Shown piece by piece: positions 38,788 through 53,497 of a stretch of DNA of 53,497 nt. The notes under the pieces are model-generated. The model did no database searches. It was given only the letters and a program-made list of their open reading frames with translations, and had not been told where the DNA came from. The stretch lies in assembly GCA_964649215.1 (NCBI GenBank), contig CAZYOV010000003.1, forward strand, positions 1-53,497. The letters are read 5' to 3'. The position numbers and the translations under genes are program-made. Position 1 is the stretch's first letter. Every line of letters begins with the position of its first letter. The stretch comes from an uncultured Dehalococcoidia bacterium. GTDB taxonomy: Bacteria > Chloroflexota > Dehalococcoidia > SM23-28-2 > RBG-16-64-32.

Positions 38788-39848
38788 ATGCTCGCCAAGG
38801 TCAGCAGTTGCGCCGTCGTCGGCCTCGGCGGGGAGGTCGTCGAGGTCGAAGTCGACATCAGCCAGGGGTTGCCCGCCTTCTCCATCGTCGGCCTTCCCGA
38901 CGCTGCTGTGCAGGAGGCGAAGGAGCGTGTGCGCTCCGCCGTGCGCAACTCCGGCCACGACTTCCCCCTCAAGCGGATAACCGTCAACCTGGCCCCAGCC
39001 GATCTGCGCAAGGAGGGGCCAGCGTATGACCTGCCGATAGCGGTGGGCATCCTCATGGCGTCCGGACAGGTGCCAGCGGCAGATAACGTCGCGGTGTACC
39101 TGGGCGAGCTCTCTCTGGACGGTCAACTCCGGCACACGACCGGTGTGCTGCCCATGGTAGCCCTGGCACGCGACCACGGATTCGAGGCCGTCTTCGTGCC
39201 CGCCGGAGATGCGGCTGAGGCGTCGTTGATCGACGGCGTGCGGGTGATGCCGGTGAGCGCCCTGGGCGACCTAACATCTCACCTGCGGGCCGTTCAACCT
39301 ATCGCCCCTTTCGTGCCGACGGAGCAACGCACATCACCGCAGACCCCCGACGCCGATATCGTCGACTTCCGCCATATCCGCGGCCAGGAACACGTGAAGC
39401 GAGCGCTAGAGGTGGCGGCGGCGGGCGGGCACAACGTTCTGATGACAGGGCCTCCCGGCGCCGGGAAAACGCTTCTCACCCGCGCCATGCCCGGTATCCT
39501 GCCGGCGATGACGCCGCAGGAGGCGCTGGAGGTGACGAAAATCTACAGCGTGGCGGGGCTCCTGCCACAGGACACGCCGATGGTGCGGAGGCGGCCGTTC
39601 CGGGCGCCGCACCATACGGTGTCGCACGCCGGCCTGGTGGGCGGAGGCCGAAACCCCCGGCCGGGCGAGATCACGCTTAGCCATCGCGGGGTCCTGTTCC
39701 TGGACGAGCTGCCGGAGTTCCCGCACTCGGTGCTGGAGTCGATCCGGCAGCCGATGGAGGACGGGGTGGTGACGGTGAGCCGCGCCCAAGGTACGGTGAC
39801 GTTCCCGGCCAACTTCATGATGGTGGCAGCGATGAACCCCTGCCCGTG
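38788..39848 (+). pseudogene. comM: comM/YifB Mg-chelatase-like ATPase, 5' part only, interrupted by an insertion
   Basis: [33 protein letters not shown]; homology ends at AAMNPCP followed by WRN-stop instead of CG. Confidence 0.92.
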
Positions 39849-41413
39849 GAGAAATTAGCTACAGCAGGGAACCTGTACTCGATAATCAGGGTCGCCCGCT
39901 TAGTACCATTGGCCTCCTCGGTCTTCACAGTAATTCGCCGCACGAGGAGGGAGACAATCTCCTGGCGCATGCCATCGTCCACACCTTCGTTCAGCCGCCG
40001 GCGTACCCCCGACAGTAGTTCTTCACTCGGCATGTCCTGGGTAGGGGGTTCGGTCGGCACAAGGTCGGCGAGCCGTCGCCTGAGCGTCTCCTCTTCGTCT
40101 CCGATAGACTCCATCTGCGAATCGAACTCGTCCGCCGTGATGCGGCCGCGTCTGTATACATCGATGATCCGATCGCGCTGACCCGAGATGTTCCCCAGCG
40201 CGTCCTCAACCAACTGTCGTTCGGCTTCCGTGAGCGCAGCCTCGCTGGTCTGGTTAAGCTCCGCCGTGAGTTCCTCGATGATATCTCCCGGCTCTAGCAG
40301 GAATCTCACACAGTCTCCCCAGACCAAAGGCACCAAACAGTCGCCCCTGATCGACTTCGCCTTGCAGCGCCCCTCGTGCTTCCCGCGGCCGACTATCTGG
40401 CCGTTGCACCTGTACCACACGACATTGCGCCCCACGGTCCCGGAGTAGGTAAGCCCACAGAGCCCACAGCGGATTACCGAGCGCAGAACATAGGTCCGCG
40501 TAGCGCCTTTCGCCATAATGCGGTTGCGAGCCAGCGTCTCCTTCGCGGCACCCCACACTTCGGGCGACACCAGCGGCGGCACTGCGGCTACGATGGGCTC
40601 CTGACTGCTGGGACGTGTACGGCGCCGGCCATAGTGATACTCCCCTTTATAGACCGGATTCACCACTAAATTCCGTATTCGGCCGGCCCGCCAGACCCCC
40701 TGTGTGCGCTTCTTCCGTTTGCCAACGCGCTCCTTCACGCAACGGTCGTCCTTCGAGTAGACCGTAGGTACGCCGAGTGCGCTCAGGTGATCAGCGATCT
40801 TGCGACAGCTCCATCCCTCTACCAGCCAGCCGTAAATCTGGATGACAACATCCGCCTCGGTCCATGTCCTCCACATGACGATGTCGCTGGGAACCAGTCG
40901 GGCAGTCTGCTTCTTGCCTTCAACCTTGTACCCAAGGGGAACGATGCCGCCGCAGTAGCGGCCGTCCCTCGCGGCTCGTGCCATGCCCTCAGCCGATTGA
41001 GCAAGGAAGCGCCGCCGGTTGGCTGCACTAACGACGGCATGAATCCCGTAGACAAACCGATCACCGATGGGCTCCGCAATACCAACTAGCTCGACGCCGA
41101 GACCTTCAAGAAGCGCATAGAGTTGGAGAAGGTCGATCTCGTTCCTGCCCAGGCGATCTGGCCTTGTCACCCAGATCTCCGTGAACCTCCCATTCATCGC
41201 GTCCTCAAGCAGGCGCTTGCCCGCAGGTCGCTGATTCATTGGGATCGTGCCCGACACGCCGTCGTCTCGATACCGCCGATACACTCTGACGTTGGGGTGC
41301 ATAGCAAGATAGCGATCGATCACGTCCGTCTGCGTCTTGATGGTCTCGCGCTCCCTCTGGTCGTCGGACGAGACTCGCTCATATATGGCAACCCACCTGA
41401 CCTCATCACTCAT
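39815..41413 (-). CDS. Large serine recombinase (integrase)
   Basis: [11 protein letters not shown] catalytic Ser, [15 protein letters not shown], recombinase domain, CGLCG..YRC Zn ribbon, coiled coil. Confidence 0.95.
39830..39865. mobile_element. Probable host/element junction (att site) of the comM-integrated element
   Basis: Host-like sequence ends at ..AACCCCTGCCCGTG (39848), then AT-richer GAGAAATTAGC. Confidence 0.8.
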
Positions 41414-41610
41414 CGTCTCAGCTCCTCTGTCCTGCCCGGCGGCACCTTCGGGAGCCCGAGGACAACCCTCAATGCCGCCAGCATCGCGTTTCGGTCAGGT
41501 GTGTATGAACGCTCTACTTGGAGGCTGTTAGCAAGTCCCTCGGCCTTCCTCTTGGGCGAGGGATCTCCCGCATTGGAGTTCCCTGTCTTGCGATTGTTGT
41601 CGTCCTGCAT
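41410..41610 (-). CDS. Small protein coupled to the integrase; possible directionality factor
   Basis: 66 aa, ends in YTPDRNAMLAALRVVLGLP; ATGA overlap with the integrase start. Confidence 0.55.
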   Translation of the reverse strand: MQDDNNRKTGNSNAGDPSPKRKAEGLANSLQVERSYTPDRNAMLAALRVVLGLPKVPPGRTEELRR

Positions 41611-41786
41611 TGAGAAACCCCCGAGAGGCCCGGCCTGGCAGCTTGGCGCTCATCGGGGGTTATGCGATTTGTGCGTATCCAATCGCGCCAGGCCGGGACC
41701 TCAATGGTCCTTCACGTGCAAGGCGTGAAAAACGGGGGAACGATGTGACTTTCGAGGGAACACCAGCCTCGTGGCCAGCGTAATAT

Positions 41787-43070
41787 TCAGAAAACCCAGT
41801 TCATCGGGCTATCCGGACGGTAGGAGCAAAAGACTCCGGTCTTGATAGTATTGCTAAGAAGTTGACCAAGAGCTTCGTCCTCGCGCCGGATTCGCCTCAC
41901 CGCCATATTGATCTGCTTCGTAACGTTCACCCGGGCTCGCTCAACAGGGGACTTGCCCTCCCTACGTCTTCCGCCGAGACCCTTCCCTCGCGTAAGCTCC
42001 CGTGCTACCGTTTGCATCTCCTCTTCGATGTCGGTAGCCCGATCGACGTCGCCGAGCTCCTTCGCTTCATCAAGCTGTTCTTGAAGGGCGCGGAGAGTAG
42101 CCCTGTATTCCAGCAGCGCCCGTTCGTCCGGCGTATCCCCGGCATCGCCAAGGGCACCGACAGATAGGCGGTTTTCCGCGAGTTGTCGCTCGGTCGTGCT
42201 CCCTGCGACGTCGTTAGCAACAGGGGAGCCTCCTCGCTCAACGAGCGAAACGAGATCCAACGCGTGAAAGTCTTGCTCCGGGCTGCGCAGCAGATAGGCG
42301 AGATAATGGAGGCCTTTGCTACTTCGAAGTCGAAACTCCGCTCCCCGGTGCCCGATGGTCCAATAGTCGCCCTCTTTCCGAAACGCGTAGCCCGCGCCGC
42401 CAGTGTCGCTCGCATGTACCGTCAGAGCCGTCTCCAGCGCGTCCTGCTCAAGCTCTAGTCGGCCTCCAGTGAAAGCGACTAGCCGGGAGAGGGAGCATAT
42501 GACCGAGCCATCCATGACGTCTCCCGCTGGCACTTCGGACAACGCGAGGAGGACGGGCAGTCTGTAGCTGTCGCGGCGCAGCCTCACGCCGATGACTTCC
42601 TTTGCGTCTGGCCATACCAGCCCCCGCGCCAATAACATGCTCATGGCCTGCCCAGCAAGACTGGCCTTGCCGAGGAACCACAAGCGCGAGCGCACCACCT
42701 CCCGTGCAGGCTGCCGGATTGACAGACACCCGGCAACCATCTCGCCAAGCTTCAGGATGTCGAGCCGCCAGCGCCTGAGCCGCTCCAGATTCACGGGCAC
42801 ACGCCCAACTTCCGGGCAGGTGATATACGCCCTCGCGTCCGCGTCAGCGCCCGACTTCAGCAGCTCGGGCTCCTCCCAATGGCCCTCGGCACACCCGTCG
42901 CACATCACCGTAGGGCTTGGCTGAGCAGGATTAAGAAGGCCCGATTCCAGACAGGGAATCAGGCTGGCCTGCGGCCACTGACGCATCTCGTCAGCCGTGA
43001 AGAGTTCGGCGCCCGCCAAGCCCGAATCAGAGCGGTAGAGAATCTCGCGCAGGAGATCGGCGTCTCTCAC
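41787..43070 (-). CDS. Hypothetical protein: Cys-cluster N domain plus C domain like those of large AAA transcriptional regulators
   Basis: CDGCAEGH..YITCPE; FRKEGDYWTI..KGLHYLAYLL..ERARVNVTK..IKTGVFCSY; GTG overlaps the upstream TGA. Confidence 0.6.
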   Translation of the reverse strand: MRDADLLREILYRSDSGLAGAELFTADEMRQWPQASLIPCLESGLLNPAQPSPTVMCDGCAEGHWEEPELLKSGADADARAYITCPEVGRVPVNLERLRRWRLDILKLGEMVAGCLSIRQPAREVVRSRLWFLGKASLAGQAMSMLLARGLVWPDAKEVIGVRLRRDSYRLPVLLALSEVPAGDVMDGSVICSLSRLVAFTGGRLELEQDALETALTVHASDTGGAGYAFRKEGDYWTIGHRGAEFRLRSSKGLHYLAYLLRSPEQDFHALDLVSLVERGGSPVANDVAGSTTERQLAENRLSVGALGDAGDTPDERALLEYRATLRALQEQLDEAKELGDVDRATDIEEEMQTVARELTRGKGLGGRRREGKSPVERARVNVTKQINMAVRRIRREDEALGQLLSNTIKTGVFCSYRPDSPMNWVF

Positions 43071-44284
43071 GCGCCCTGTAGTTCGCTGGTGCTCTGGACG
43101 ACGTCGATGCCCGAGTCCGCCAGCATCTTCCGGATTAAGGCATCCCTCCCATCCTGTGCTAACGCACAGGAGTTGGGGTACGAAATCTGGAATGTCCTCG
43201 TTCGCCGACCCCGCTTTCCGTCCGGCTCGAAGTGAACCTGGATGCCTGCCAGGGTAACATTTACTAGCGCGAGGGGAATCTTCCGACATGTGTCACACCT
43301 CGGCCCGTCGGCAGTCTGCACGACCTCGTCTAGTAGGTCGTACACAGCCGCCCTGTTCATAGACGGGTCATCTTCGAGTGTGATTCGCCTACCGGCACCA
43401 AGGGTGGACAGCCGAAGTTTCTTCACCCGCACGTCTCGGATGCCCGAGATGGGCTCGTAGATGAACTGGAAGTCACGCCGTTTGAGCCCGTTGAGCTCGT
43501 ACACCCTCTCATCCCTCACGGGATCGCCCAACTCAGTATTCAAGATGACGCGGGCAAAGACTTCTTGGAGGTCCTGCACCTTCTTCTTTGGCCCTTCTAG
43601 GAAAATGTCAAGCGTCCCGGCATTCTGCGCGTAAACGAAGATGATCTCGAAGGCAGGTCGATGCGGACGGCGCGCCAGTCCGCTAGCTTCCCATTCAATG
43701 CTCGTCCTGCCGTAGTCCGCTAGGTAGACGAAGAAATATTCACGGTCACCCCGCCTGTAGACGTCGATCTTGCATGAGTGACCGCGACCCTCACGTTCCC
43801 GGAAGTAGAAGCTGATCGCCTGCTCAAACTTCGAAATATTCGCTTCGTCAACAGATGGTGGCACCTGCGGGACACCCTTGCGCTTGCGCCAGTATCGAGC
43901 CGGCAGGTTGTCCGCGTCACTAAACCGGAGTGCCACGTCAAAGACTTCTCTTCGCTCCAGAAACGCCCAGAAGGCCCGATCATAGAACCCATCCATCTCG
44001 GCGAACAGGGGCTCTAGATCCTGGTCGTGAAAGCGCGCCTCCTCTAGGAGCGTCCGGGTTCCAGCCTCGTTGGCCAGAGCCTCGATATTGCGGAAGTTAG
44101 CATCCACCTGCGTGCGCACCTCGGCTGGCAAGTCGTTCCAGGCATCGTATACTGGGTCGATGGCCGTTTCGTCGAGTGCGGCTATGTTGACTTCAGCCAA
44201 CACCCCCTGCCCATCAAAGTAGCGTGCGAGCAGACCATTCGGCGCCTGGCGGAGAAACGCCTTCGGAGAGTATTGGGTAGTCAT
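43067..44284 (-). CDS. Hypothetical protein
   Basis: Uninterrupted ORF of about 405 aa from MTTQYSPKAFLRQ, coupled to the next gene; no family recognised. Confidence 0.7.
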   Translation of the reverse strand: MTTQYSPKAFLRQAPNGLLARYFDGQGVLAEVNIAALDETAIDPVYDAWNDLPAEVRTQVDANFRNIEALANEAGTRTLLEEARFHDQDLEPLFAEMDGFYDRAFWAFLERREVFDVALRFSDADNLPARYWRKRKGVPQVPPSVDEANISKFEQAISFYFREREGRGHSCKIDVYRRGDREYFFVYLADYGRTSIEWEASGLARRPHRPAFEIIFVYAQNAGTLDIFLEGPKKKVQDLQEVFARVILNTELGDPVRDERVYELNGLKRRDFQFIYEPISGIRDVRVKKLRLSTLGAGRRITLEDDPSMNRAAVYDLLDEVVQTADGPRCDTCRKIPLALVNVTLAGIQVHFEPDGKRGRRTRTFQISYPNSCALAQDGRDALIRKMLADSGIDVVQSTSELQGA

Positions 44285-44416
44285 GACTCCCTGCCAATCG
44301 TAGATATATGAACGTGCGTAAGCCTTTAACCCCCCGCGCCGCGATGACATAATAGCATATAGCGCGAGATGGTCAATGCTGTGGTGACGCGTGTCAGCAG
44401 AACGGGGGGTTGCTGC

Positions 44417-45352
44417 CTAGACTCCCAGCGCTTCGGCCACCTTCCCCCAGCCTCGATCCTCCTGGCCTTCCAGCCGGCGCAAGTAGACAGTCGTAACCTG
44501 GAGAGAACTGTGGTCCAGGAACCGGCTGACGTCCTCCACCGACTCGCCTGCGTCGCGCCGCAGCTTGGCGGCCGCGTGCCGCAGGATATGGACGCCGGCG
44601 GGCGGAAGGCCTGCGGCCACGAGGTAGCGCTTCAGGCTGGCGTAGAACGTCCCATCCGTGATTCCAGCACGGTTCCTTGAGGGGTGGTGCGACGGCCATA
44701 GCGACTCATCCGAGTCCATCGCCGCCAGGCTCTTGCCCCTGACCGCCAGCGCAGTTTCAATCGCATCGAATGCCGGACGTGGCAGCTCGCGCTTTGCCCG
44801 TTTCCCGCCCTTGCCGCGATACGTGTAGAACAGCCCACCCGTCGTCGAGATGTCGCCGGCTTTAAGGTTCAGAATCTCGGAGCGGCGCCGCCCGGTGAGC
44901 ACGAGCGTCAGCGCGATCGCCCGGTCCCGAAGGCCCCCTGGCGTCTCGGGGATGGCCGACAGCAAGCGCCTGATCTCCTCAGCGCTCAGCCCCCGTGGCG
45001 GAGCAGGACTCACCCGGGGCCGCTCGATCTCGTCACAGGGGTTTGAAGACACAATCTTCATGCGGATCAGGAACCGGTAGAACGAGCTGACGCAGGCGAG
45101 GCGAGCGCCGATGGTGACCAGGGCGGGCTCGCGTCCCGAAGGCCCTCGGCCGTGCGCGAAGGCGAATACATTCTGGCTGGTGATCTGGTCCGGCGGCTTC
45201 CCGAGCGTCCCGAAGAAGCGCTGTAGCGTCCGCGAGTAGGCGTCTACTGTGCGCCTCGATCCGCTCCGCCGCTCCTTCTCGGCGAGGAAGGCGTAGAAGG
45301 CCTGTTCCCAGTCCGCAATCGTGTCATTGAATAGTACAATGTCGCTAGCCAT
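44417..45352 (-). CDS. XerC/XerD-like tyrosine recombinase
   Basis: SAM-like N domain; catalytic TGRRRSE (R), GKGGK (K), HILRH, LDH, TTVY (Y); GGAGGAG SD. Confidence 0.93.
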   Translation of the reverse strand: MASDIVLFNDTIADWEQAFYAFLAEKERRSGSRRTVDAYSRTLQRFFGTLGKPPDQITSQNVFAFAHGRGPSGREPALVTIGARLACVSSFYRFLIRMKIVSSNPCDEIERPRVSPAPPRGLSAEEIRRLLSAIPETPGGLRDRAIALTLVLTGRRRSEILNLKAGDISTTGGLFYTYRGKGGKRAKRELPRPAFDAIETALAVRGKSLAAMDSDESLWPSHHPSRNRAGITDGTFYASLKRYLVAAGLPPAGVHILRHAAAKLRRDAGESVEDVSRFLDHSSLQVTTVYLRRLEGQEDRGWGKVAEALGV

Positions 45353-45392
45353 GTTCTCCTCCAATCTCGAAGTCAGACGTAGCTTCGCTCCT

Positions 45393-45432
45393 ACACACAC
45401 GAAGTCAAGTCCAATTCGTACTTAGTGGCACC
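45393..45432. other. Putative recombination site A (degenerate dif-like)
   Basis: Arm TTAGTGGCACC (45422-45432); GTCAAG at 45404-45409 equals the spacer of site B. Confidence 0.55.
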
Positions 45433-45435
45433 CTG

Positions 45436-45972
45436 ATGGCAGATCTCGGCCTGGCACGACGCATCGAGGCTCGATCTACGGGACAAGCCGGGCAACGCGA
45501 GTTCCGGCTCTGGGTCAACGGCGCCCGTCGGGAATTCGCGAGGCTGAAACTGGAGAAGGAGCACTTGCTCGGCCTACGGATGGCTATCCATAGAGTGTTG
45601 TCAAAGGCCAATGCGCCAGCCTCGCCTCCGGACAAATCGCTGGACGACTTCCCGGCAGTGCCCGGCTATGACTTCGTGGTGGGCCGTTTGGCGGTTGGCT
45701 TCTCGGAGGCTGATGGCACCATAGTCCTCGAAGTAGACGAGGTTGCGCCGGAGGAAGAGAAGAGCCCCTTTACTTTGCAATTTCGCTTCAGCCGCTCTCA
45801 GGCGGCCGATCTGGCCCGCGAGATAGACGACATCATTGCGGCTGGCCGGCCACCGTGCCGGCTTTGCAGCCAGCCGGTTGACCCCGCCGGCCATATCTGC
45901 GTCAGGACCAACGGCCACACGCCACAGCCGATTCCAGAACAACCTAGCGCGGAGGAGGACGACAAACACTAA
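45436..45972 (+). CDS. DUF3090-family protein
   Basis: TGQAGQREFRL, LKLEKEHL, GRPPCRLCSQPVDPAGHICVRTNGH. Confidence 0.85.
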   Translation: MADLGLARRIEARSTGQAGQREFRLWVNGARREFARLKLEKEHLLGLRMAIHRVLSKANAPASPPDKSLDDFPAVPGYDFVVGRLAVGFSEADGTIVLEVDEVAPEEEKSPFTLQFRFSRSQAADLAREIDDIIAAGRPPCRLCSQPVDPAGHICVRTNGHTPQPIPEQPSAEEDDKH

Positions 45973-45989
45973 GTCAAGTTAGTGGCAAC
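45962..45989. other. Putative recombination site B (dif-like, 11+6+11)
   Basis: ACAAACACTAA-GTCAAG-TTAGTGGCAAC; contains the DUF3090 stop codon. Confidence 0.72.
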
Positions 45990-46020
45990 AACGTGAGATT
46001 GCGCAGGCGCCTGAAAAGAC

Positions 46021-46046
46021 AAGGCCTCCCGTCGAAGGGAGGCCTT
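46021..46046 (+). terminator. Perfect hairpin, possible terminator
   Basis: AAGGCCTCCC-GTCGAA-GGGAGGCCTT, short U tail only. Confidence 0.45.
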
Positions 46047-46353
46047 CTAGGCCCTCAGGAGGTGCGCTGGAACCCCCTGCTCGCTATGTCGCACCGGCGA
46101 GTGCCCGAGCCTCTGGCTCTGTCCTCCAGCGCTTACGCTAACGGCCTATCGGATACTTCATGCCGATTAATACGGCGGCTCGGGTACGGCGAACAGGAAA
46201 TACGCGCCCAAGCGCATCACCTCCTCTTCACCAAGTATACCCGGGGGCCGGACAAAGCACACAGCGATCCCATTTGAGTCCTTCGAGTACAATAGCCGTG
46301 AAGAAAGCGCCGACGAGCGAAGTCACTGGAACGTCAGGCATCCTTGCTTTCCT

Positions 46354-46953
46354 ATGGCCGAAATCCTGTCAGAAGAGCTCATTGCCTACGTCCGACACGG
46401 GCGCGAGGAGCGCCGTCTTGAGTATAAAGAGAAACTCGACTGGGACACACCATCTCACAAAGCCAAGGTGGTAAAAGCAGCGCTCGGCATGAGCAACATA
46501 CGCGATGGAGGGGTCCTCGTGATCGGCGTGGGAAATGACGGAACGCCGAAAGGCTTGAAGAAGGAGCCGGCCAGCAAGTTCACGCATGATGCGGTAGCCG
46601 CACAAGTAAACGAATTCGCTGCCCCATACGCGGAGGTTACCGTCCACGTTGGCCGGACTGATGCGGCCAACACCTCTTGGTACGTGGTGATCCAGATACA
46701 AGAGTTCGCGGAGGTCCCAGTCGTCTGCCGGAAAGACGGCCACAACTTGAGGCAGGGCGCCATCTATACGAGGGGCCGCCGCATCCACGAGACAGCCGAG
46801 GTAAGGACCGAGGCTGAAATGCGGGAGATACTCGATATCTCAGTCGAGAAGGGCATTCGAGCCTTCTACCGAAGGGCTGAAGCGGCCGGCCTAGACGTGT
46901 CGCCAAGGGCCACAGACAGAGCGCGATTCGACGCCCAATTGGAAGGTCTATGA
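46354..46953 (+). CDS. Schlafen/AlbA_2 domain protein
   Basis: EERRLEYKE, VVKAALGMSNIRDGGVLVIGVGND, GAIYTR. Confidence 0.85.
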   Translation: MAEILSEELIAYVRHGREERRLEYKEKLDWDTPSHKAKVVKAALGMSNIRDGGVLVIGVGNDGTPKGLKKEPASKFTHDAVAAQVNEFAAPYAEVTVHVGRTDAANTSWYVVIQIQEFAEVPVVCRKDGHNLRQGAIYTRGRRIHETAEVRTEAEMREILDISVEKGIRAFYRRAEAAGLDVSPRATDRARFDAQLEGL

Positions 46954-47637
46954 ATGGCTGAGCTGCTGGATAGGATTCACGGCACGGCGTACTGGCGCGT
47001 GACCATCAGACCGTCCGAGTTCGATCCTAGCCGCGTCCCCACGCTAGGCCAATGCAAGGACATTGTGGAAGCTTCCCAGGTCGTGCTCCGGGGATGGGAC
47101 TATCCGCATATCGAGGAGATCACATCGGGCGGGAGCGACTGGATAGAGTCGCAGTGCCATTGGGAAGGAAGACATCTCGAGTACTGGCGCTTCTACATGA
47201 GCGCGCAGTTTGCGCATCACTTTACGCTCATAGAGGATTTCCACAGACTGACGAGATCCCCCGCGCCCGAGCGCTACATGCTCGTACTGAACGCTCTCTA
47301 CACAGTCACGGAAGTCTTCGAATTTGCTGCCCGTCTCGCCCACCACGGTGTCCTGCGCCCGGCTGCAGACCTGTCAATCCGCATTCACGGAACGCAGGGG
47401 CGTGAACTGACGTATCAGGACCTCTTCCACTCGGTCGGGTTCGGACCGTATGTCTGTCGGCAATCTGACATCCGATACGAGACCCAAGCCTCTGAGGCAC
47501 AGCTGCTCGGCCAAGCTGCCAATCTAGCCGTAGATGCCGCGATCGCAATCTTTGAAGCGTTTCAGTGGTTCAATCCTCCCAAGGCACAGCTAATCGAAGA
47601 ACAGGCCAAACTCCTTGAACGGAGGCTTGGCGTTTGA
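46954..47637 (+). CDS. Hypothetical partner of the AlbA_2 protein
   Basis: Starts directly after the AlbA_2 stop in the same frame; LRGWDYPH, EYWRFY.S.QF motifs. Confidence 0.7.
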   Translation: MAELLDRIHGTAYWRVTIRPSEFDPSRVPTLGQCKDIVEASQVVLRGWDYPHIEEITSGGSDWIESQCHWEGRHLEYWRFYMSAQFAHHFTLIEDFHRLTRSPAPERYMLVLNALYTVTEVFEFAARLAHHGVLRPAADLSIRIHGTQGRELTYQDLFHSVGFGPYVCRQSDIRYETQASEAQLLGQAANLAVDAAIAIFEAFQWFNPPKAQLIEEQAKLLERRLGV

Positions 47638-47648
47638 CCAACCATCGC

Positions 47649-47676
47649 CCGCACACTAAGACCTGTTAGTGGACCT
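47649..47676. other. Putative recombination site C (dif-like, 11+6+11)
   Basis: CCGCACACTAA-GACCTG-TTAGTGGACCT, 11 nt after the upstream stop. Confidence 0.72.
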
Positions 47677-47735
47677 CCGATCAATAGGCGGACACCTTGG
47701 CTTTCCCGCCTGAATCGGCGTAAAATCACCCTGCA

Positions 47736-50078
47736 ATGCCCCTCTCAGAAGCGGACACTCGTGCCAAACTCATCGATCCCGCCCTACATAACCGGGGCTG
47801 GACCGAAGACCTTATCCGCCGTGAGGAAACCGCACCGGCCGTCGAGATCATCGAGGGCAAGCCTCGACGTAGGTCGCAGGGACGCGTGGACTACACGCTG
47901 CGCGTCCGCGTGAACGCGGAGACGCAGCCGGTGGCCGTCGCTCTGCTCGAGGCCAAGCCCGCGGATTCGCCTCCTGGCCTCGGCCTCGAGCAAGCCAAGG
48001 GCTACGCTCGCCGTCTCAATGTGCCCTTGGTGTACTCCTCCAACGGTCACCAGTACGTCGAATACGACAACTATACAGGGCTTACGACACGCCCCCGCCA
48101 ACTCTCTCGCTTCCCCTCTCCGCACGATCTTCGCACTCGCTACGAGGCCCTGGTCGGCTTCACGCTCGATAGCGGTGCCGCAAAACCCCTCCTGGCCCGC
48201 TATCCCGGCGGCGAGGCCACTCGCCGCTACTATCAGGACGCGGCGATCCGGGCGACTTTGGAGAAGTTCGCTCGTGGGAACAAGCGCGCCCTGCTATCCC
48301 TAGCCACCGGTTCCGGGAAGACCTTTATCGCCGTGCACCTTCTCAGGAAGATAGCCGACGCCGGGCAACTGCGCCGTGCCCTCTTCGTCTGCGACCGTGA
48401 CGAGTTGCGTTCCCAGGGGCTGGCCGCCTTCCAGAACATATTCGGCGCAGACGCTGCGGAGATTACTTCCTCCAACGCTCAGAAGAACGCCCGCATCCTG
48501 ATTGGCACCTACCAGACCCTGAACGTGAGCGGTGAGGACGAAGATGCGCGGTTTCTCACCGACAACTACCCGGAAAACTACTTCAGCCACATCGTCATGG
48601 ACGAATGCCACCGCTCCGCCTGGGGGAAGTGGAGCAACGTGCTCACGCGCAACCCGAACGCCTTCCAGGTCGGCCTCACCGCCACCCCCCGCCGCATCAT
48701 CGGTGGCAGCCGGGACGAACGCTCCGAAGACGAACAGATCTCCGCAAATAATTTGCAGCACTTCGGCGAGCCGGTATACGAGTACGACATGTCGCAGGGC
48801 ATCGAGGACGGCTGGCTCGCCGCTTGCGAGGTCATCCGCCGCATCATCAGTCTGGATCAATCCGGTGTGACCCGTGACGACATTGAGCGGCTCACCGCCG
48901 AGGTGACGGATGCCAATACAGGTGAGGTGGTTTCTCTCGCCGAAACTCGTGAACGTTACGATGCGCCGTCTTTCGAGGACAATATCCAGCTTCCGGATCG
49001 CGTATCGGCCACATGCGCTGACCTCTTCCAGCATCTTCTGGCTACCGGCGGACCCGAGCAGAAGACCATCGTCTTTTGCGCCCGCGACACCCACGCTGAC
49101 GCTGTGGCCGCCGAAATGAACAACCTCTACGCCGAATCGTGCCGCCAGAACGACCGAGAGCGCCGCGACCCCTACGCCTTCAAATGCACCGCCGCCGTCG
49201 GCGGCAGCCAGCACATCGCTGACCTGAAGGGCCTCCAGCGCTCGCACTTCATCGCCACGACCGTCGAACTGCTCACGACGGGGGTCGATGTGCCGCCCGT
49301 ACGCAACATCGTCTTCCTCAAGTACGTCCGTTCCCCCATCGCCTTCTACCAGATGGTCGGTCGCGGCACCCGAATCGACATCCCCAACAATAAGCTCATG
49401 TTCCGCGTCTACGACTACACCAACGCCACCCGCCTCTTCGGAGAGGAGTTCGTCAGCCGACCCACCCCCAGCCGTGAGCCGCCGGAGGACTCCCCGGAAG
49501 CCCCCAAGGAGCGCACTATCCGCGTCGAGGGCTTCGACGTTCGTATAGGCGATGCTGGCACGTACGTCGTCATGAACGTCGACGGCAAGGCGATGCCCGT
49601 CACCGTGGAGGAGTATCGCGAGCGCCTCGCGGAGCGGCTGGTTGAGCAAGCCCCCACGCTGGACGACTTCCGCCGTCGCTGGATCGCGCCCCCTGACCGC
49701 CGCGCCCTCATCGACCGTCTCCCCAACGATGGCAGCGGCGCTCGCCTCCTCCGTGACCTCACCGGCCTCCAGGACTGTGACCTCTACGACGTGCTCGCCG
49801 AGACCGCCTACGGCCTCGCCCCTAAGACCCGTGATGAGCGTGTCCAGGCCTTCGCCTACAAGCACAAGCGCTGGCTCCGCCGACAGCCGGAGCCCGCCGC
49901 CGCAACTATTCAAGCCCTCGCCTCTCAGTTCGCTCAGGGCGGCATCGAAGCCATGGAGAACCCCCACGTCTTTCAGGCGCCTGACGTGGCCCAGGCTGGC
50001 GGCTTGGCCGCCCTCAGCAAGTTGGGCCAGCCTGCGGACATCCTCCGCCAGACCAAGGAAAGGCTCCTGGCGGCATGA
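47736..50078 (+). CDS. hsdR: Type I restriction enzyme subunit R (EcoAI/EcoEI-like)
   Basis: MPLSEADTRAKLIDPAL, VDY..EAK nuclease motif, ATGSGKT, DECH, GLTATP, QMVGRGTR. Confidence 0.93.
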   Translation: MPLSEADTRAKLIDPALHNRGWTEDLIRREETAPAVEIIEGKPRRRSQGRVDYTLRVRVNAETQPVAVALLEAKPADSPPGLGLEQAKGYARRLNVPLVYSSNGHQYVEYDNYTGLTTRPRQLSRFPSPHDLRTRYEALVGFTLDSGAAKPLLARYPGGEATRRYYQDAAIRATLEKFARGNKRALLSLATGSGKTFIAVHLLRKIADAGQLRRALFVCDRDELRSQGLAAFQNIFGADAAEITSSNAQKNARILIGTYQTLNVSGEDEDARFLTDNYPENYFSHIVMDECHRSAWGKWSNVLTRNPNAFQVGLTATPRRIIGGSRDERSEDEQISANNLQHFGEPVYEYDMSQGIEDGWLAACEVIRRIISLDQSGVTRDDIERLTAEVTDANTGEVVSLAETRERYDAPSFEDNIQLPDRVSATCADLFQHLLATGGPEQKTIVFCARDTHADAVAAEMNNLYAESCRQNDRERRDPYAFKCTAAVGGSQHIADLKGLQRSHFIATTVELLTTGVDVPPVRNIVFLKYVRSPIAFYQMVGRGTRIDIPNNKLMFRVYDYTNATRLFGEEFVSRPTPSREPPEDSPEAPKERTIRVEGFDVRIGDAGTYVVMNVDGKAMPVTVEEYRERLAERLVEQAPTLDDFRRRWIAPPDRRALIDRLPNDGSGARLLRDLTGLQDCDLYDVLAETAYGLAPKTRDERVQAFAYKHKRWLRRQPEPAAATIQALASQFAQGGIEAMENPHVFQAPDVAQAGGLAALSKLGQPADILRQTKERLLAA

Positions 50079-51325
50079 CAGCCGCGACGCCTCCCGTGGA
50101 GAATCGTTCGCCGCTTCCCCCCGGCTGGCGCTGGGCCCGCCTGGGCGACCTCTTTGACATACAACAAGGTGTCGCAATGTCGCCTGCCCGACGCCATGGC
50201 ACCCCCCTTCGACCCTTTCTGCGCACTATCAACATCGTTTGGGGCGGGGTTGACCTCTCCGTCCTCGACAGGATGCATTTCACCGATCAAGAGGTCGCGA
50301 GGCTGTGCTTGAAGGAAGGTGACCTCTTAGTTTGCGAAGGCGGCGACGTAGGTAGAACGGGCATCTGGAGAGGCCAGCTCGATGTATGTCTATACCAGAA
50401 CCACGTCCACAGGCTGCGCGTGCGGGACAGTGACGTTGTTCCCGAGGTCTACATGTACTGGATGCAGGCAGCAATGCAGCTCGGCGTTTACGCCGGCCAG
50501 TGGGGTGAGACCACTATAGCCAACCTTTCATCGTCGCGGCTTAGTTCGTTCCAAGTGCCCCTCCCTCCCCTTCCCGAGCAACGCCGCATCGCCGCCGTCC
50601 TCAGCGAGCAACTCGACGCCGTGCGGCGCGCCCGCGCCGCCGCCCTCGCCCGCCTTGAGGCCGCCCGCGCCCTCCCCGCCGCCTTCCTCCGCGCCCTCTT
50701 CGACTCCGACGAGGCCCAGCACTGGCCAAGGGTGGGGTTGGGGGAGATCGCGGCAGTGAACTACGGCCTAACCAAGGACCCGATCCGTTCGGCCGGACCG
50801 AACCAGATCCCCTATCTCAGGGTGGCAAATGTGCAGGAGAGTTGGGTAGATACAGATGACATACTCACCCTCCACGTCGATCCAGCAGAGTATGACAATG
50901 TATTGCTTCGTCCGGGAGACTTACTCTTTACTGAAGGCAATAGCAAGAAGTTGGTCGGTCGTTGTGCTCTCTGGCATGGCCAAGTCGATCCATGCTCGCA
51001 TCAGAACCACATTCTGCGCGCTCGGGTGCATGAGGGGGTTGGACTGCCCGAATTCCTGTTCTTCTACGCTCGGAGTCCTGTGGGGCGGTCTTATTTCTTC
51101 TCAGTAGCCAAGCAAACAACCGGGATCGCGACGATGAATTCCACGCAACTCAGGAACTTCGAGGTTCCATGGCCTGACATGGCTACACAGGAATCAGCGG
51201 TTCGTGCCTTGCAATCACACATGGCCGCCATAAGTGAAACCCGCCGCCACGCCGAGGCCGAACTCGCCGCCATCGACGCCCTCCCCCACGCCCTCCTACG
51301 CCGCGCCTTCGCCGGAGAACTGTAA
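50075..51325 (+). CDS. hsdS: Type I R-M specificity subunit with two TRDs
   Basis: LPPGWRW.RLG, PLPPLPEQRRIA, two variable regions, C-terminal LLRRAFAGEL. Confidence 0.93.
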   Translation: MTAATPPVENRSPLPPGWRWARLGDLFDIQQGVAMSPARRHGTPLRPFLRTINIVWGGVDLSVLDRMHFTDQEVARLCLKEGDLLVCEGGDVGRTGIWRGQLDVCLYQNHVHRLRVRDSDVVPEVYMYWMQAAMQLGVYAGQWGETTIANLSSSRLSSFQVPLPPLPEQRRIAAVLSEQLDAVRRARAAALARLEAARALPAAFLRALFDSDEAQHWPRVGLGEIAAVNYGLTKDPIRSAGPNQIPYLRVANVQESWVDTDDILTLHVDPAEYDNVLLRPGDLLFTEGNSKKLVGRCALWHGQVDPCSHQNHILRARVHEGVGLPEFLFFYARSPVGRSYFFSVAKQTTGIATMNSTQLRNFEVPWPDMATQESAVRALQSHMAAISETRRHAEAELAAIDALPHALLRRAFAGEL

Positions 51326-52836
51326 TGGTTCGCACCGCTGGAGCCCGCCTCAACGTCCCCCAGGACGTCAACACCTACGTCAAGTCCATCTGTGACATCA
51401 TGCGCCGCTCCAACTGCGCCGGCGCCCTCCAGTACGTCCCCGAACTAACGTGGATGCTCTTCCTCCGCATCCTGGACCAGCGCGAGGACGAAGAGGCCAG
51501 CAACGCCGCCGCCGTCGACGTCCCGTTCACCCCCACCCTTCAGCAGCCCTACCGCTGGCGCGACTGGGCCGCCCGCCACGGCCCTAAGCGCCAGGAGCTA
51601 CAGGACGGCACCCTCGGCGCCTTCATGGCCTTCGTCGACCAAGACCTCATCCGTCACCTTAGAACCCTCAAAGACCGCCCCGGCGCCACCCCCCGCCAGA
51701 AGATCGTCAGCGAGGTCTTCTCCGGCGTCGAGCGCTCCGGCATCGACACCGAGCGCAACCTCCTTGACATCCTCGACCGCCTCGATGACCTCAGCGTCCA
51801 ACAGGTCGACAACACCCACGTCTTCACCCTCTCCCAAGTCTATGAGGGCCTGCTCCTAAAGATGGGCGAGAAGAACAACGACGGCGGCCAGTTCTTTACC
51901 CCCCGCGAGATCATCCGCGCCATGGTCCGCGCTGTAGACCCCCGCGTCGGCGAAACCGTCTACGACCCATGCTGCGGCACCGGCGGCTTCCTCGCCCAAA
52001 GCTACGAGCACATGCTCAGCCAGGCCGGCACCGGCGACGACATTCAGACCTTAAAGGAGCGCACCTTCTATGGCCGGGAGAAAGAGAATATAGTCTACCC
52101 CATCGCTCTCGCGAACCTCATCCTCCACGGCATCGACGAGCCGCACATCTGGCACGGCAACACCCTCACCGGCCAAGAGGTGTACGGCGGCCTCTTTGAC
52201 GACGCACCAGACCTGTTCGACGTAGTGCTCACGAATCCCCCTTTCGGTGGCAAGGAGGGGAAAGAGGCGCGGACGCGCTTTCCGTACAAGACGGGCTCCA
52301 CCCAAGTCCTCTTTCTCCAGGAGGTCATGCAAAGGCTCAAAGATGGCGCTCGCTGCGGCATCGTCGTCGATGAGGGCTTCCTGTTCCGCACCAACGAGAA
52401 CGCGTTCGTCCAGACGAAGCGGAAGCTCCTGGACGAGTTCAACGTCTGGTGCATCGTTAGCCTTCCCGCCGGCGTCTTCATGAACGCCGGCGCCGCCAGC
52501 AAGACGAACCTCCTGTTCTTCACCGAGGGCAACCCCACGGAGTCGATCTGGTACTACGACCTCTCCGACATCAAGGTCACAAAGCGCCAGCCCTTCACCC
52601 TCGACCGCTTCGACGACTTTTTCCGACTGCTCCCCGGCCGCGAAGACAGCGACCGTAGCTGGTCCGTCCCCGTCGCCGACCTGAAGGCCAAGAACTATGA
52701 CCTCAAGGCTGTTAACCCCAACGCAAAGGTCGTCGAAGACACCCGCACGCCCAAAGAGCTTCTCGCCATCATCGAGGAGGAGGGCCGCAAGATCACGGAT
52801 GCCCTGGCTGCCCTTAGGAGAAATGCCTCGAAGTAG
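51325..52836 (+). CDS. hsdM: Type I R-M N6-adenine methyltransferase
   Basis: GQFFTPR, YDPCCGTGGFL, LTNPPFGG. Confidence 0.95.
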   Translation: MVRTAGARLNVPQDVNTYVKSICDIMRRSNCAGALQYVPELTWMLFLRILDQREDEEASNAAAVDVPFTPTLQQPYRWRDWAARHGPKRQELQDGTLGAFMAFVDQDLIRHLRTLKDRPGATPRQKIVSEVFSGVERSGIDTERNLLDILDRLDDLSVQQVDNTHVFTLSQVYEGLLLKMGEKNNDGGQFFTPREIIRAMVRAVDPRVGETVYDPCCGTGGFLAQSYEHMLSQAGTGDDIQTLKERTFYGREKENIVYPIALANLILHGIDEPHIWHGNTLTGQEVYGGLFDDAPDLFDVVLTNPPFGGKEGKEARTRFPYKTGSTQVLFLQEVMQRLKDGARCGIVVDEGFLFRTNENAFVQTKRKLLDEFNVWCIVSLPAGVFMNAGAASKTNLLFFTEGNPTESIWYYDLSDIKVTKRQPFTLDRFDDFFRLLPGREDSDRSWSVPVADLKAKNYDLKAVNPNAKVVEDTRTPKELLAIIEEEGRKITDALAALRRNASK

Positions 52837-52903
52837 CAGCCGCAACCCCAGGGTTCCAAGTAGCCCAACCGCCGGAATACAACGGACCCAAAGGGGGACT
52901 CTA

Positions 52904-52931
52904 CCCGATACTAACCACACTTATCGACAGT
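52904..52931. other. Putative recombination site D (dif-like, divergent)
   Basis: CCCGATACTAA-CCACAC-TTATCGACAGT; GTCAAG follows at 52930-52935. Confidence 0.5.
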
Positions 52932-53031
52932 CAAGCCCGTGCTGTGCCTGGGGGTCGAGGTCTGAGGTAGAATGTCCCTACGGGGCCTGGGAAAATGCCC
53001 GGACGCAGCGACCTCTAGGGTGCGGAGTAGC

Positions 53032-53497
53032 ATGACTGAGCTTTCGGATTCAGCCGAGCCTGGACGCCAACCCGGCACCCACGGGCATGATGAGGAGTTG
53101 GTGCGTGCCCTGCTCACCGCCACCGGTCAGGGGATCTACGGTGTCGACCTCGAAGGCAACTGCACGTTTGCCAATCCGGCCTGCGTGACCATGCTGGGCT
53201 ACGGAAGTGACCAAGAGCTGCTGGGCAAGAACATGCATGCGCTCATCCACCACACCCGCCCGAGCGGAGAGCCCTATCCGGTCGAGGAGTGCCGAATCTA
53301 CCGGGCCTTCATTGAAGGCGAAGGGACCCACGCCGGCGACGAGATTGTGTGGCGGGCGGACAGCACCAGCTTCCCCGCCGAGTACTGGTCTTACCCGCTG
53401 TTCCTGCATTCGAAGCTGGCCGGCTGCGTCGTCGCGTTCGTCAACATCACCGAGCGCAAGCGCGCCGAGGAGGAGCTGCGACAGACGGAGAAGCTAT
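53032..53497 (+). CDS. PAS-domain sensor protein, probably a histidine kinase; 3'-truncated and absent from the ORF track
   Basis: My translation from ATG 53032: GIYGVDLEGNCTFANPA..LGY..LLGKNMHALIH..DITER-like NITERKRAEEELRQTEKL; TAGAAT at 52968-52973. Confidence 0.85.
   Translation, partial: MTELSDSAEPGRQPGTHGHDEELVRALLTATGQGIYGVDLEGNCTFANPACVTMLGYGSDQELLGKNMHALIHHTRPSGEPYPVEECRIYRAFIEGEGTHAGDEIVWRADSTSFPAEYWSYPLFLHSKLAGCVVAFVNITERKRAEEELRQTEKL

Follow-up and report, generated by a model that had tools for sequence, protein, structure and literature searches.

In engineered recombinase-mediated cassette exchange, heterospecific lox or FRT sites share their arms but carry incompatible spacers, and a double crossover swaps the segment between them. 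For the pdif modules of Acinetobacter, it has been proposed that a module is replaced by way of a cointegrate, with another crossover to follow at a different matching pair of sites; experiments have shown the first of these steps, in which sites with identical spacers recombine (PMC13141974). Sedentary integrons, too, are reported to store defence genes (10.1101/2024.07.02.601686). We analyzed a stretch of 53,497 nucleotides from an uncultured Dehalococcoidia bacterium (contig CAZYOV010000003.1; the whole stretch is called the window throughout), in which the gene of a Xer-like tyrosine recombinase lies next to an array of gene modules with 28-bp sites between them. A first-pass annotation of this DNA had suggested that a single recombinase acting on short, near-symmetric sites shuffles these modules, and our sequence comparisons support this idea in substance. 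None of the three findings that, according to this annotation, would speak against the idea was made. The dedicated recombinase and its ordered, mutually incompatible sites probably serve to exchange modules slot by slot between related islands. In the literature searched, no description of this system was found.

The recombinase gene, the modules and the sites (for which no strand is given) are arranged in the window as follows:

44417-45352, minus strand: Xer-like simple tyrosine recombinase of 311 aa, the proposed site-acting enzyme (Pfam PF00589, Phage_integrase, and PF02899, SAM-like N domain)

45393-45432: composite proximal site A', consisting of arm ACACACACGAA (12.2 bits), GTCAAG, 12 bp and arm TTAGTGGCACC

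45436-45972, plus strand: DUF3090 gene, first module (PF11290, E 4e-24)

45962-45989: site B, ACAAACACTAA-GTCAAG-TTAGTGGCAAC (23.5 bits; CTTGAC spacer class)

46354-47637, plus strand: second module, SLFN/AlbA_2 protein (46354-46953; PF04326, E 1e-9) and 227-aa protein (46954-47637)

47649-47676: site C, CCGCACACTAA-GACCTG-TTAGTGGACCT (25.6 bits; CAGGTC spacer class)

47736-52836, plus strand: third module, type I restriction-modification system with hsdR (47736-50078), hsdS (50075-51325) and hsdM (51325-52836), assigned by Pfam and PADLOC

52904-52931: site D, degenerate, CCCGATACTAA-CCACAC-TTATCGACAGT (arms of -2.7 and +7.2 bits; GTGTGG spacer class)

The gene calls of the first-pass annotation (tyrosine recombinase, DUF3090, SLFN/AlbA_2 with a partner of unknown function, hsdR-hsdS-hsdM) hold, and all four site sequences were found where it had placed them. 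Its statement that the sites lie at module boundaries applies well to B and C, which are strong 11-6-11 palindromes and have the perfect palindrome CACTAA-N6-TTAGTG in common, but D is degenerate. The sequence that had been described as a half-site A is present (45422-45432, TTAGTGGCACC), but it does not stand alone as a half-site. Rather, it represents the left arm, in a displaced position, of the composite site A', and the same layout with the same 12-bp gap was found in the window and in eight relatives, all of the DUF3090 subclade. An intact 11-6-11 proximal site, CACACTAA-CTTGAC-TTCGTGTG, is present about 70 nt upstream of the recombinase start codon in four related loci (L043, L046, L003, L004). 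Site B contains the stop codon of the DUF3090 gene, and its spacer is that of the proximal site. Homology to locus L085 stops 5 bp from site B.

The core motif ACTAA-N6-TTA occurs at three places in the 53.5 kb, where 0.13 were expected, and none of 100 shuffles equaled this count. When the window was scanned with the arm matrix described below, no full site of at least 11 bits was detected besides B and C, and there was none in the other 44 kb of the window. This agrees with the earlier reading by eye, in which the full motif had not been found outside the island. It had also been pointed out that arm A matches the E. coli XerC arm at 8 of 11 positions. This match carries little weight as evidence, since conservation within the site family is weak at the five outer positions of the arm. 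The 28-bp sites form 6-bp stems with a folding energy of only -3 kcal/mol (z-scores of about -1.5), in line with the earlier remark that attC hairpins are lacking. An attC-like or terminator role of the sites was rejected because of this weak folding and because no T-tract follows them. A separate GC-rich hairpin past site B (46021-46046) is terminator-like on the minus strand.

A search of the related loci for exact CACTAA-N6-TTAGTG gave no match outside the window's own contig. With two mismatches allowed, similar sites with recurring spacers were found upstream of recombinase homologues. We built an 11-nt arm matrix, which ignores the spacer, from 17 sites upstream of homologues. This matrix gave 55 matches in the initial 649 kb, compared with 2.3 in shuffles. 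After 80 metagenome loci had been added (126 related loci in total), there were 100 matches upstream and 12 downstream of the recombinase homologues. For the 83 loci outside matrix building, the corresponding numbers were 49 upstream and 4 downstream, with 0.6 in shuffles. In 50 of 99 loci, the recombinase gene was preceded by a site at a distance of no more than 160 bp, but such a site was present in only 1 of 385 control windows. The sites are associated with the recombinase in loci of two phyla, Chloroflexota and Actinomycetota. When the left arm is compared with the reverse complement of the right arm, both yield nCGnACACTAW as consensus, in keeping with a single homomeric enzyme.

The first-pass annotation had cautioned that the spacers differ between the sites, which normally blocks classical tyrosine recombination. 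Comparison of the loci resolves this point. The spacers fall into position-specific classes, which differ within an array and match between arrays, so that recombination would be blocked inside one array and allowed between arrays, as in pdif modules. Nine spacer classes hold 85 of the 122 non-redundant upstream sites (CAGGTC 25, CTTGAC 15, CGCAAT 9, TGCGCC 8, TGCATC 8, GTGGGG 6, TGCAAT 6, GTGTGG 4, GAGGTC 4). Identical spacers were observed in 11% of the site pairs between loci (0.05% expected), and the arms of same-spacer pairs were only 59% identical. Thus, the spacer is kept while the arms drift. Seen outward from the recombinase, the proximal classes (CTTGAC, TGCAAT, CGCAAT) come first and are followed by TGCGCC/TGCATC, by CAGGTC-type sites and finally by GTGKGG. 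Each of the 52 site pairs, drawn from 25 loci, conforms to this order, and every class has a single orientation relative to the recombinase. The window obeys the order: A' and B belong to the CTTGAC class, C is a CAGGTC site, whose spacer is identical and in the same orientation in 25 non-redundant loci, and D has the spacer GTGTGG. For D, spacer, ACTG flank and position match a site at 1117 of the close relative L043; the GTGTGG class also occurs in L003, L004, and L014, and the GTGGGG variant in six further loci. Directly inward of the TGCATC site, L011 carries a tRNA-Val-like sequence (1314-1383), the 5' end of which is apparently truncated, and similar sequences are present in L030, L077, and L092. 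They could be relics of a tRNA attachment site that was brought in with a cassette.

When the islands were compared with each other, several breaks of homology fell inside sites. L043 and L046 align with 81% identity until the alignment breaks off within the CAGGTC site, and the homology resumes at the proximal site, with an unrelated slot in between. The same pattern, a slot replaced between sites, was seen for L012 and L015, which belong to one metagenome-assembled genome (MAG). In L003 and L004, again from one MAG, homology begins exactly at the proximal site. L009 and L012 have nothing in common except the 42-bp TGCATC site and a segment that runs from the proximal site across the recombinase gene, and L084 and L088 have all sequence inward of the TGCGCC site in common. 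For L009 and L030, the homology break also lies inside a site. L058 and L084 carry a 3.8-kb cargo module with 87.5% nucleotide identity, their recombinase genes being 77.6% identical, and L058 and L002 have unrelated arrays on backbones that are 89.6% identical. A global breakpoint test was restricted to distal regions, since alignment ends inside the recombinase gene had swamped a whole-locus version. Here, 10 of 106 distal homology ends were located within 12 bp of a site, compared with 1.6 ± 1.2 expected. Whole-module differences with junctions at sites do occur, although for only part of the junctions.

From this pattern we infer that the recombinase acts on these sites, that it requires identical spacers and that exchange takes a two-step route. 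The region would be the variable arm of a mobile island, which was put into comM by a large serine recombinase. The island's Xer-like recombinase would bind a series of 28-bp sites as a homomer, each site being composed of two inverted 11-bp arms (nCGnACACTAW) that flank a 6-bp spacer. One site would lie over the putative promoter of the recombinase and the remainder between the gene modules, each position having its own spacer. As tyrosine recombinases require matching spacers, the sites of one array should not recombine with each other and the modules should not be deleted. Two islands, in turn, could cross over at like sites, at one class and then at a second, and the intervening module would be swapped. 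A circle with one site of the CTTGAC or TGCA type might insert at the proximal site and leave a duplicate behind, such as A' and B around the DUF3090 gene.

Several observations weigh against this scenario. The majority of the distal homology ends (96 of 106) are located away from detected sites. Many of these are due to fragmentation of low-identity alignments or to clades with few matrix sites, but not all. The module in common between L058 and L084 ends 180-215 bp before the CAGGTC site and 0.8-1.7 kb before the GTGGGG site, and L049, L054, and L085 diverge at the DUF3090 stop codon, where no site is detectable in them. Part of the module turnover is by other routes. Moreover, the CTTGAC spacer of the proximal site could be conserved simply as a -35 box, and the degenerate sites D and A' may be inactive. 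Finally, no end of the island was located beyond D.

Another explanation is that the arrays grew by accretion only. In this case, circles or small integrative elements would have been inserted successively at the proximal site by single crossovers, the sites would be leftover junctions, their spacers would be historical and there would be no two-site exchange. The proximal and the next-outward sites are indeed duplicated in some loci: A' and B both have the CTTGAC spacer with one gene between them, and the same holds for L044, L050, L053, and L054. L044 has an unrelated 176-aa gene, which is flanked by a proximal site with similar damage and, distally, by a CTTGAC site. Such duplicated proximal-type sites look like products of single-crossover insertion at the proximal site. 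Furthermore, in a second group of loci, the sequence that flanks the proximal site on the left recurs at the TGCATC sites (CTTGACTTCC together with the arm), which is what an insertion at the proximal site would produce. However, leftover junctions should drift, yet the CAGGTC spacer is identical in 25 loci with arms that are about 59% identical, and the class order is kept in all 52 pairs. In addition, L043/L046 and L012/L015 represent clean replacements of one slot between two site classes and no duplicate site was left behind. For these reasons we consider accretion as the sole process unlikely.

A strict pdif-type system, in which host XerC and XerD use the sites and the island recombinase does another job such as multimer resolution of the excised island, appears improbable. 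It would account for the 11-6-11 layout and for the inner bases TAA-N6-TTA, which are those of dif and pdif sites. On the other hand, both arms follow one consensus here, whereas pdif sites have one arm for XerC and a different one for XerD, and spacer orientation is uniform and does not alternate as in pdif sites. Moreover, the sites accompany the recombinase gene in two phyla, and one site overlaps the sequence immediately upstream of that gene.

This overlap gives some weight to the idea that the sites are regulatory palindromes, i.e. operators for the recombinase or for another DNA-binding protein, which lie between modules simply because intergenic DNA lies there. The proximal site covers a conserved TTGACT (in the window, the spacer GTCAAG of A' read on the recombinase strand), 50-75 nt upstream of the recombinase start codon. 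This hexamer could be the -35 box of the recombinase promoter, and autoregulation is plausible. A generic promoter scan called no promoter at the proximal site, and the promoter role is therefore putative. It also fits an operator function that every site is intergenic. Yet operators need no conserved, oriented and position-specific spacers, and homology that starts or stops inside 28 bp would be left unexplained. We rate this explanation marginally below the strict pdif-type system.

Least probable is a chromosomal dif site of a single-Xer organism with stacked integrative mobile elements exploiting Xer (IMEX): the recombinase is Xer-like with 73-88% identity across more than 120 protein clusters and the cumulative GC skew turns near 40 kb, but single MAGs have two or three copies, sometimes on one contig, the gene resides on islands bounded by a serine recombinase in comM or beside tRNA genes, it is found in both Chloroflexota and Actinomycetota, and stacked elements would have one common spacer whereas these sites differ.

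The closest solved structure to the recombinase is XerD (1a0p, E 3e-18), with the catalytic R, K, H-x-x-R, H, and Y residues aligned, and XerD, XerA, and XerH are its best solved relatives. As is typical of simple Xer-type recombinases, a core-binding domain is combined with a catalytic domain in which the R-K-H-R-H-Y residues are present, and an arm-binding domain is lacking. With the XerD model it scored 108 bits (cutoff 330). As scores are far below the XerC/XerD equivalog cutoffs, the enzyme is not an orthologue of either. The first-pass annotation had seen no integron-integrase signature and this was confirmed: the protein reached 48 bits with the IntI model TIGR02249 (cutoff 265) and 38 bits with NF011946 (cutoff 435), the IntI match was confined to residues 29-203, and the XerD and XerA models scored higher. 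Related proteins form the more than 120 clusters mentioned above. Copy number and host spread were determined by a scan of one genome per species. Here, we found two or three recombinase copies in several MAGs, in one case two on the same contig, and homologues with 57-76% identity in Dehalococcoidia, "Chloroflexia", Limnocylindrales, Thermoleophilia, and other Actinomycetota. The multiple copies per MAG together with the island context led us to drop the idea of a housekeeping Xer with a dif site at the terminus. Judged by these comparisons, the recombinase is not a housekeeping Xer. A plasmid or phage origin was also rejected; the recombinase is essentially absent from plasmids and viral contigs, the best plasmid match having 38% identity and a homologue being present on one viral contig only.

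The cargo between the sites is hardly ever common to different loci. Nearly all cargo proteins are singletons across the loci, and the modules comprise one to several genes, which occur on both strands in related loci. The DUF3090 gene behaves differently. Homologues with 76-80% identity occupy the same position in L047, L049, L051, L054, and L085, and in L044 the 176-aa gene takes this place. Since the gene stands beside A' in the window and in eight relatives, it represents a fixed neighbour of the recombinase in one subclade and not a freely moving cassette. For the SLFN/AlbA_2 gene and the 227-aa gene of the second module, no homologue was found in any of the 126 related loci. The two genes lie back to back and are candidates for a two-gene defence module. 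A promoter-like sequence of the sigma-70 type (TTGGCT-18-TAAAAT, 47697-47726) is located between site C and the start of hsdR and suggests that the type I module has its own promoter. The gene of a PAS protein after hsdM runs off the window. A phase-variable hsdS shufflon was considered and rejected, as there is a single complete hsdS and as no significant inverted or direct repeats were found in 39000-53497.

Type I systems start immediately past the CAGGTC site, on its distal side, in the window and in four related loci (L014, L058, L084, L064), with only 27-37% protein identity. In L012, L015, and L002, type IIG or MmeI-like enzymes were found distal of this site, in L008 a DUF4011 helicase-nuclease, and in L043 an Eco57I-like methylase with a UvrD-PDDEXK protein. 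According to these annotations, the slot between CAGGTC and GTGKGG is repeatedly occupied by unrelated, predicted restriction-modification systems. Other slots carry TIR plus SLATT, Z1 plus HATPase, DUF429, a peptidase, a hydrolase, and a metallo-beta-lactamase-fold protein. Taken together, the slot contents indicate that the cargo is mainly, though not only, defence.

On the opposite side of the recombinase gene, the window contains the following features:

38788-39858, plus strand: 5' part of comM/yifB (Mg-chelatase-like AAA ATPase), disrupted by the island insertion (TIGR00368, 438 bits)

39815-41413, minus strand: large serine recombinase at the island end (Pfam Resolvase, Recombinase, Zn_ribbon_recom; NCBIfam XisF, CcrB-like)

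41410-41610, minus strand: conserved 66-aa open reading frame (ORF) immediately upstream of the serine recombinase (tblastn 57-76% identity, at least 12 loci)

41787-44284, minus strand: variable two-gene slot between the two recombinase genes, encoding proteins of 427 and 405 aa (no family match)

The comM fragment covers positions 2-349 of the 499 positions of the TIGR00368 profile. L009 has an intact comM of 508 aa, to which the window aligns over residues 1-367 only. The break is at about codon 354-367, and the gene of the large serine recombinase overlaps the junction. The truncated comM of the window and the full-length gene of L009 show that the tyrosine recombinase locus lies on an island inserted in comM. 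From its position and domains, the large serine recombinase is likely the integrase of the whole island. The same junction was found in L004, L007, L010, L011, and L012; in other loci, the 3' end of the serine recombinase gene overlaps or abuts tRNA-Arg(CCG) or tRNA-Pro(TGG) instead of comM. No tRNA gene was found in the window. The 66-aa ORF always precedes the serine recombinase in the loci with tblastn matches. It had no family match and may encode an accessory factor.

The 427-aa and 405-aa proteins gave no Pfam, NCBIfam, or PADLOC match. Some loci carry homologues of them with 24-57% identity, while in others the slot is filled by unrelated genes. Elsewhere, it holds an HTH_XRE pair or a 277-aa protein together with a QueC-like protein. 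No site was detected at the borders of this slot, and no conserved motif was found after the stop codon of the tyrosine recombinase. Many Chloroflexota loci have one order in common: comM 5' part, serine recombinase, small ORF, variable slot with one to three genes, tyrosine recombinase, and unrelated cargo. A 15.7-kb metagenome contig, whose end coincides with that of the window, encodes the recombinase protein as well.

The comM 3' fragment was absent from the window and was found only in L008 and L030, and tRNA-derived repeats were not detected in the loci that target tRNA genes. On contig DAOULP010000114.1, which comprises L007 and L008 and has two recombinase-plus-array units, about 43.5 kb lie between the 5' and 3' parts of comM. 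The size of this insertion, observed in one MAG, indicates that the island may extend past the window end. On this evidence, comM-inserted islands of this type can far exceed the stretch visible in the window. The cumulative GC skew of the window climbs to about 40 kb and falls thereafter. Its turn coincides with the island junction and not with a demonstrable replication terminus.

If the proposed mechanism holds, the islands would join integrons and Acinetobacter dif modules as a third recombinase-driven module platform. This platform would operate in abundant uncultured soil and sediment bacteria under rules simple enough to be read from the sequence. The 28-bp sites would then mark module borders, and many of the genes between them that are annotated without function would be candidates for new defence systems. 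For genome engineering, a small recombinase with several naturally orthogonal spacers would supply ready-made tools for multi-site cassette exchange. Moreover, the islands illustrate how a scaffold stays stable while its cargo turns over completely. In its most far-reaching form, the proposal reads as follows: a natural multi-slot cassette-exchange platform in which one homomeric recombinase serves at least four incompatible, ordered spacer classes across Chloroflexota and Actinomycetota, defence modules are exchanged slot by slot, a dedicated restriction-modification slot lies between CAGGTC and GTGKGG, and the array is protected from internal deletion. This combined claim is more tentative than the exchange logic by itself and we advance it with some reserve.

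Among the known systems, XerH/difH, XerS/difSL, and archaeal XerA/dif resemble the present one in that one Xer-like enzyme is paired with a near-palindromic site close to its own gene. They are, however, single-copy housekeeping systems for dimer resolution at the terminus, whereas the recombinase described here is multi-copy and island-borne, with many sites per locus. Engineered cassette exchange also combines one recombinase with common arms and mutually incompatible spacers. It is a two-site laboratory design, whereas the islands would represent a natural counterpart with at least four ordered classes.

The first-pass annotation had likened the island to integrons and to pdif modules. The pdif logic is supported, but the island is no integron, as the IntI signature and attC sites are lacking. 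Similarities to integrons include a recombinase gene that is transcribed away from an adjacent primary site, a variable cargo array that follows this site, and apparent insertion at the proximal site (A'/B in the window, L044). In contrast to integrons, the enzyme lacks an IntI signature, and the weakly folding sites measure 28 bp, whereas attC sites are structured, imperfect palindromes of about 57-141 bp. The modules of the islands comprise several genes, have promoter-like sequences of their own and occur in mixed orientation in related loci, whereas integron cassettes are mostly promoterless, carry single ORFs, point in one direction and depend on a common promoter. Conserved position-specific spacers constitute a further difference.

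The closest parallel is provided by the Acinetobacter pdif modules. In both systems, 28-bp sites of the 11-6-11 type bound discrete modules, the spacers differ between sites, and related replicons have a common backbone with different modules. In the islands, however, the recombinase is encoded beside the array and both arms follow the same consensus, whereas pdif arms are distinct for XerC and XerD. The spacers of the islands have one orientation, while neighbouring pdif sites are inverted with alternating C and D modules, and the spacer classes keep to a fixed order that is conserved in different genomes and phyla. The place of the plasmid is taken by a chromosomal island that a serine recombinase moves, the hosts are uncultured Chloroflexota and Actinomycetota, and the cargo is mostly defence. 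Thus, the exchange logic has already been proposed for the pdif modules, and what appears to be new here is its combination with a single enzyme encoded by the island, symmetric arms, uniform orientation, a fixed order of classes, a chromosomal island, and other phyla.

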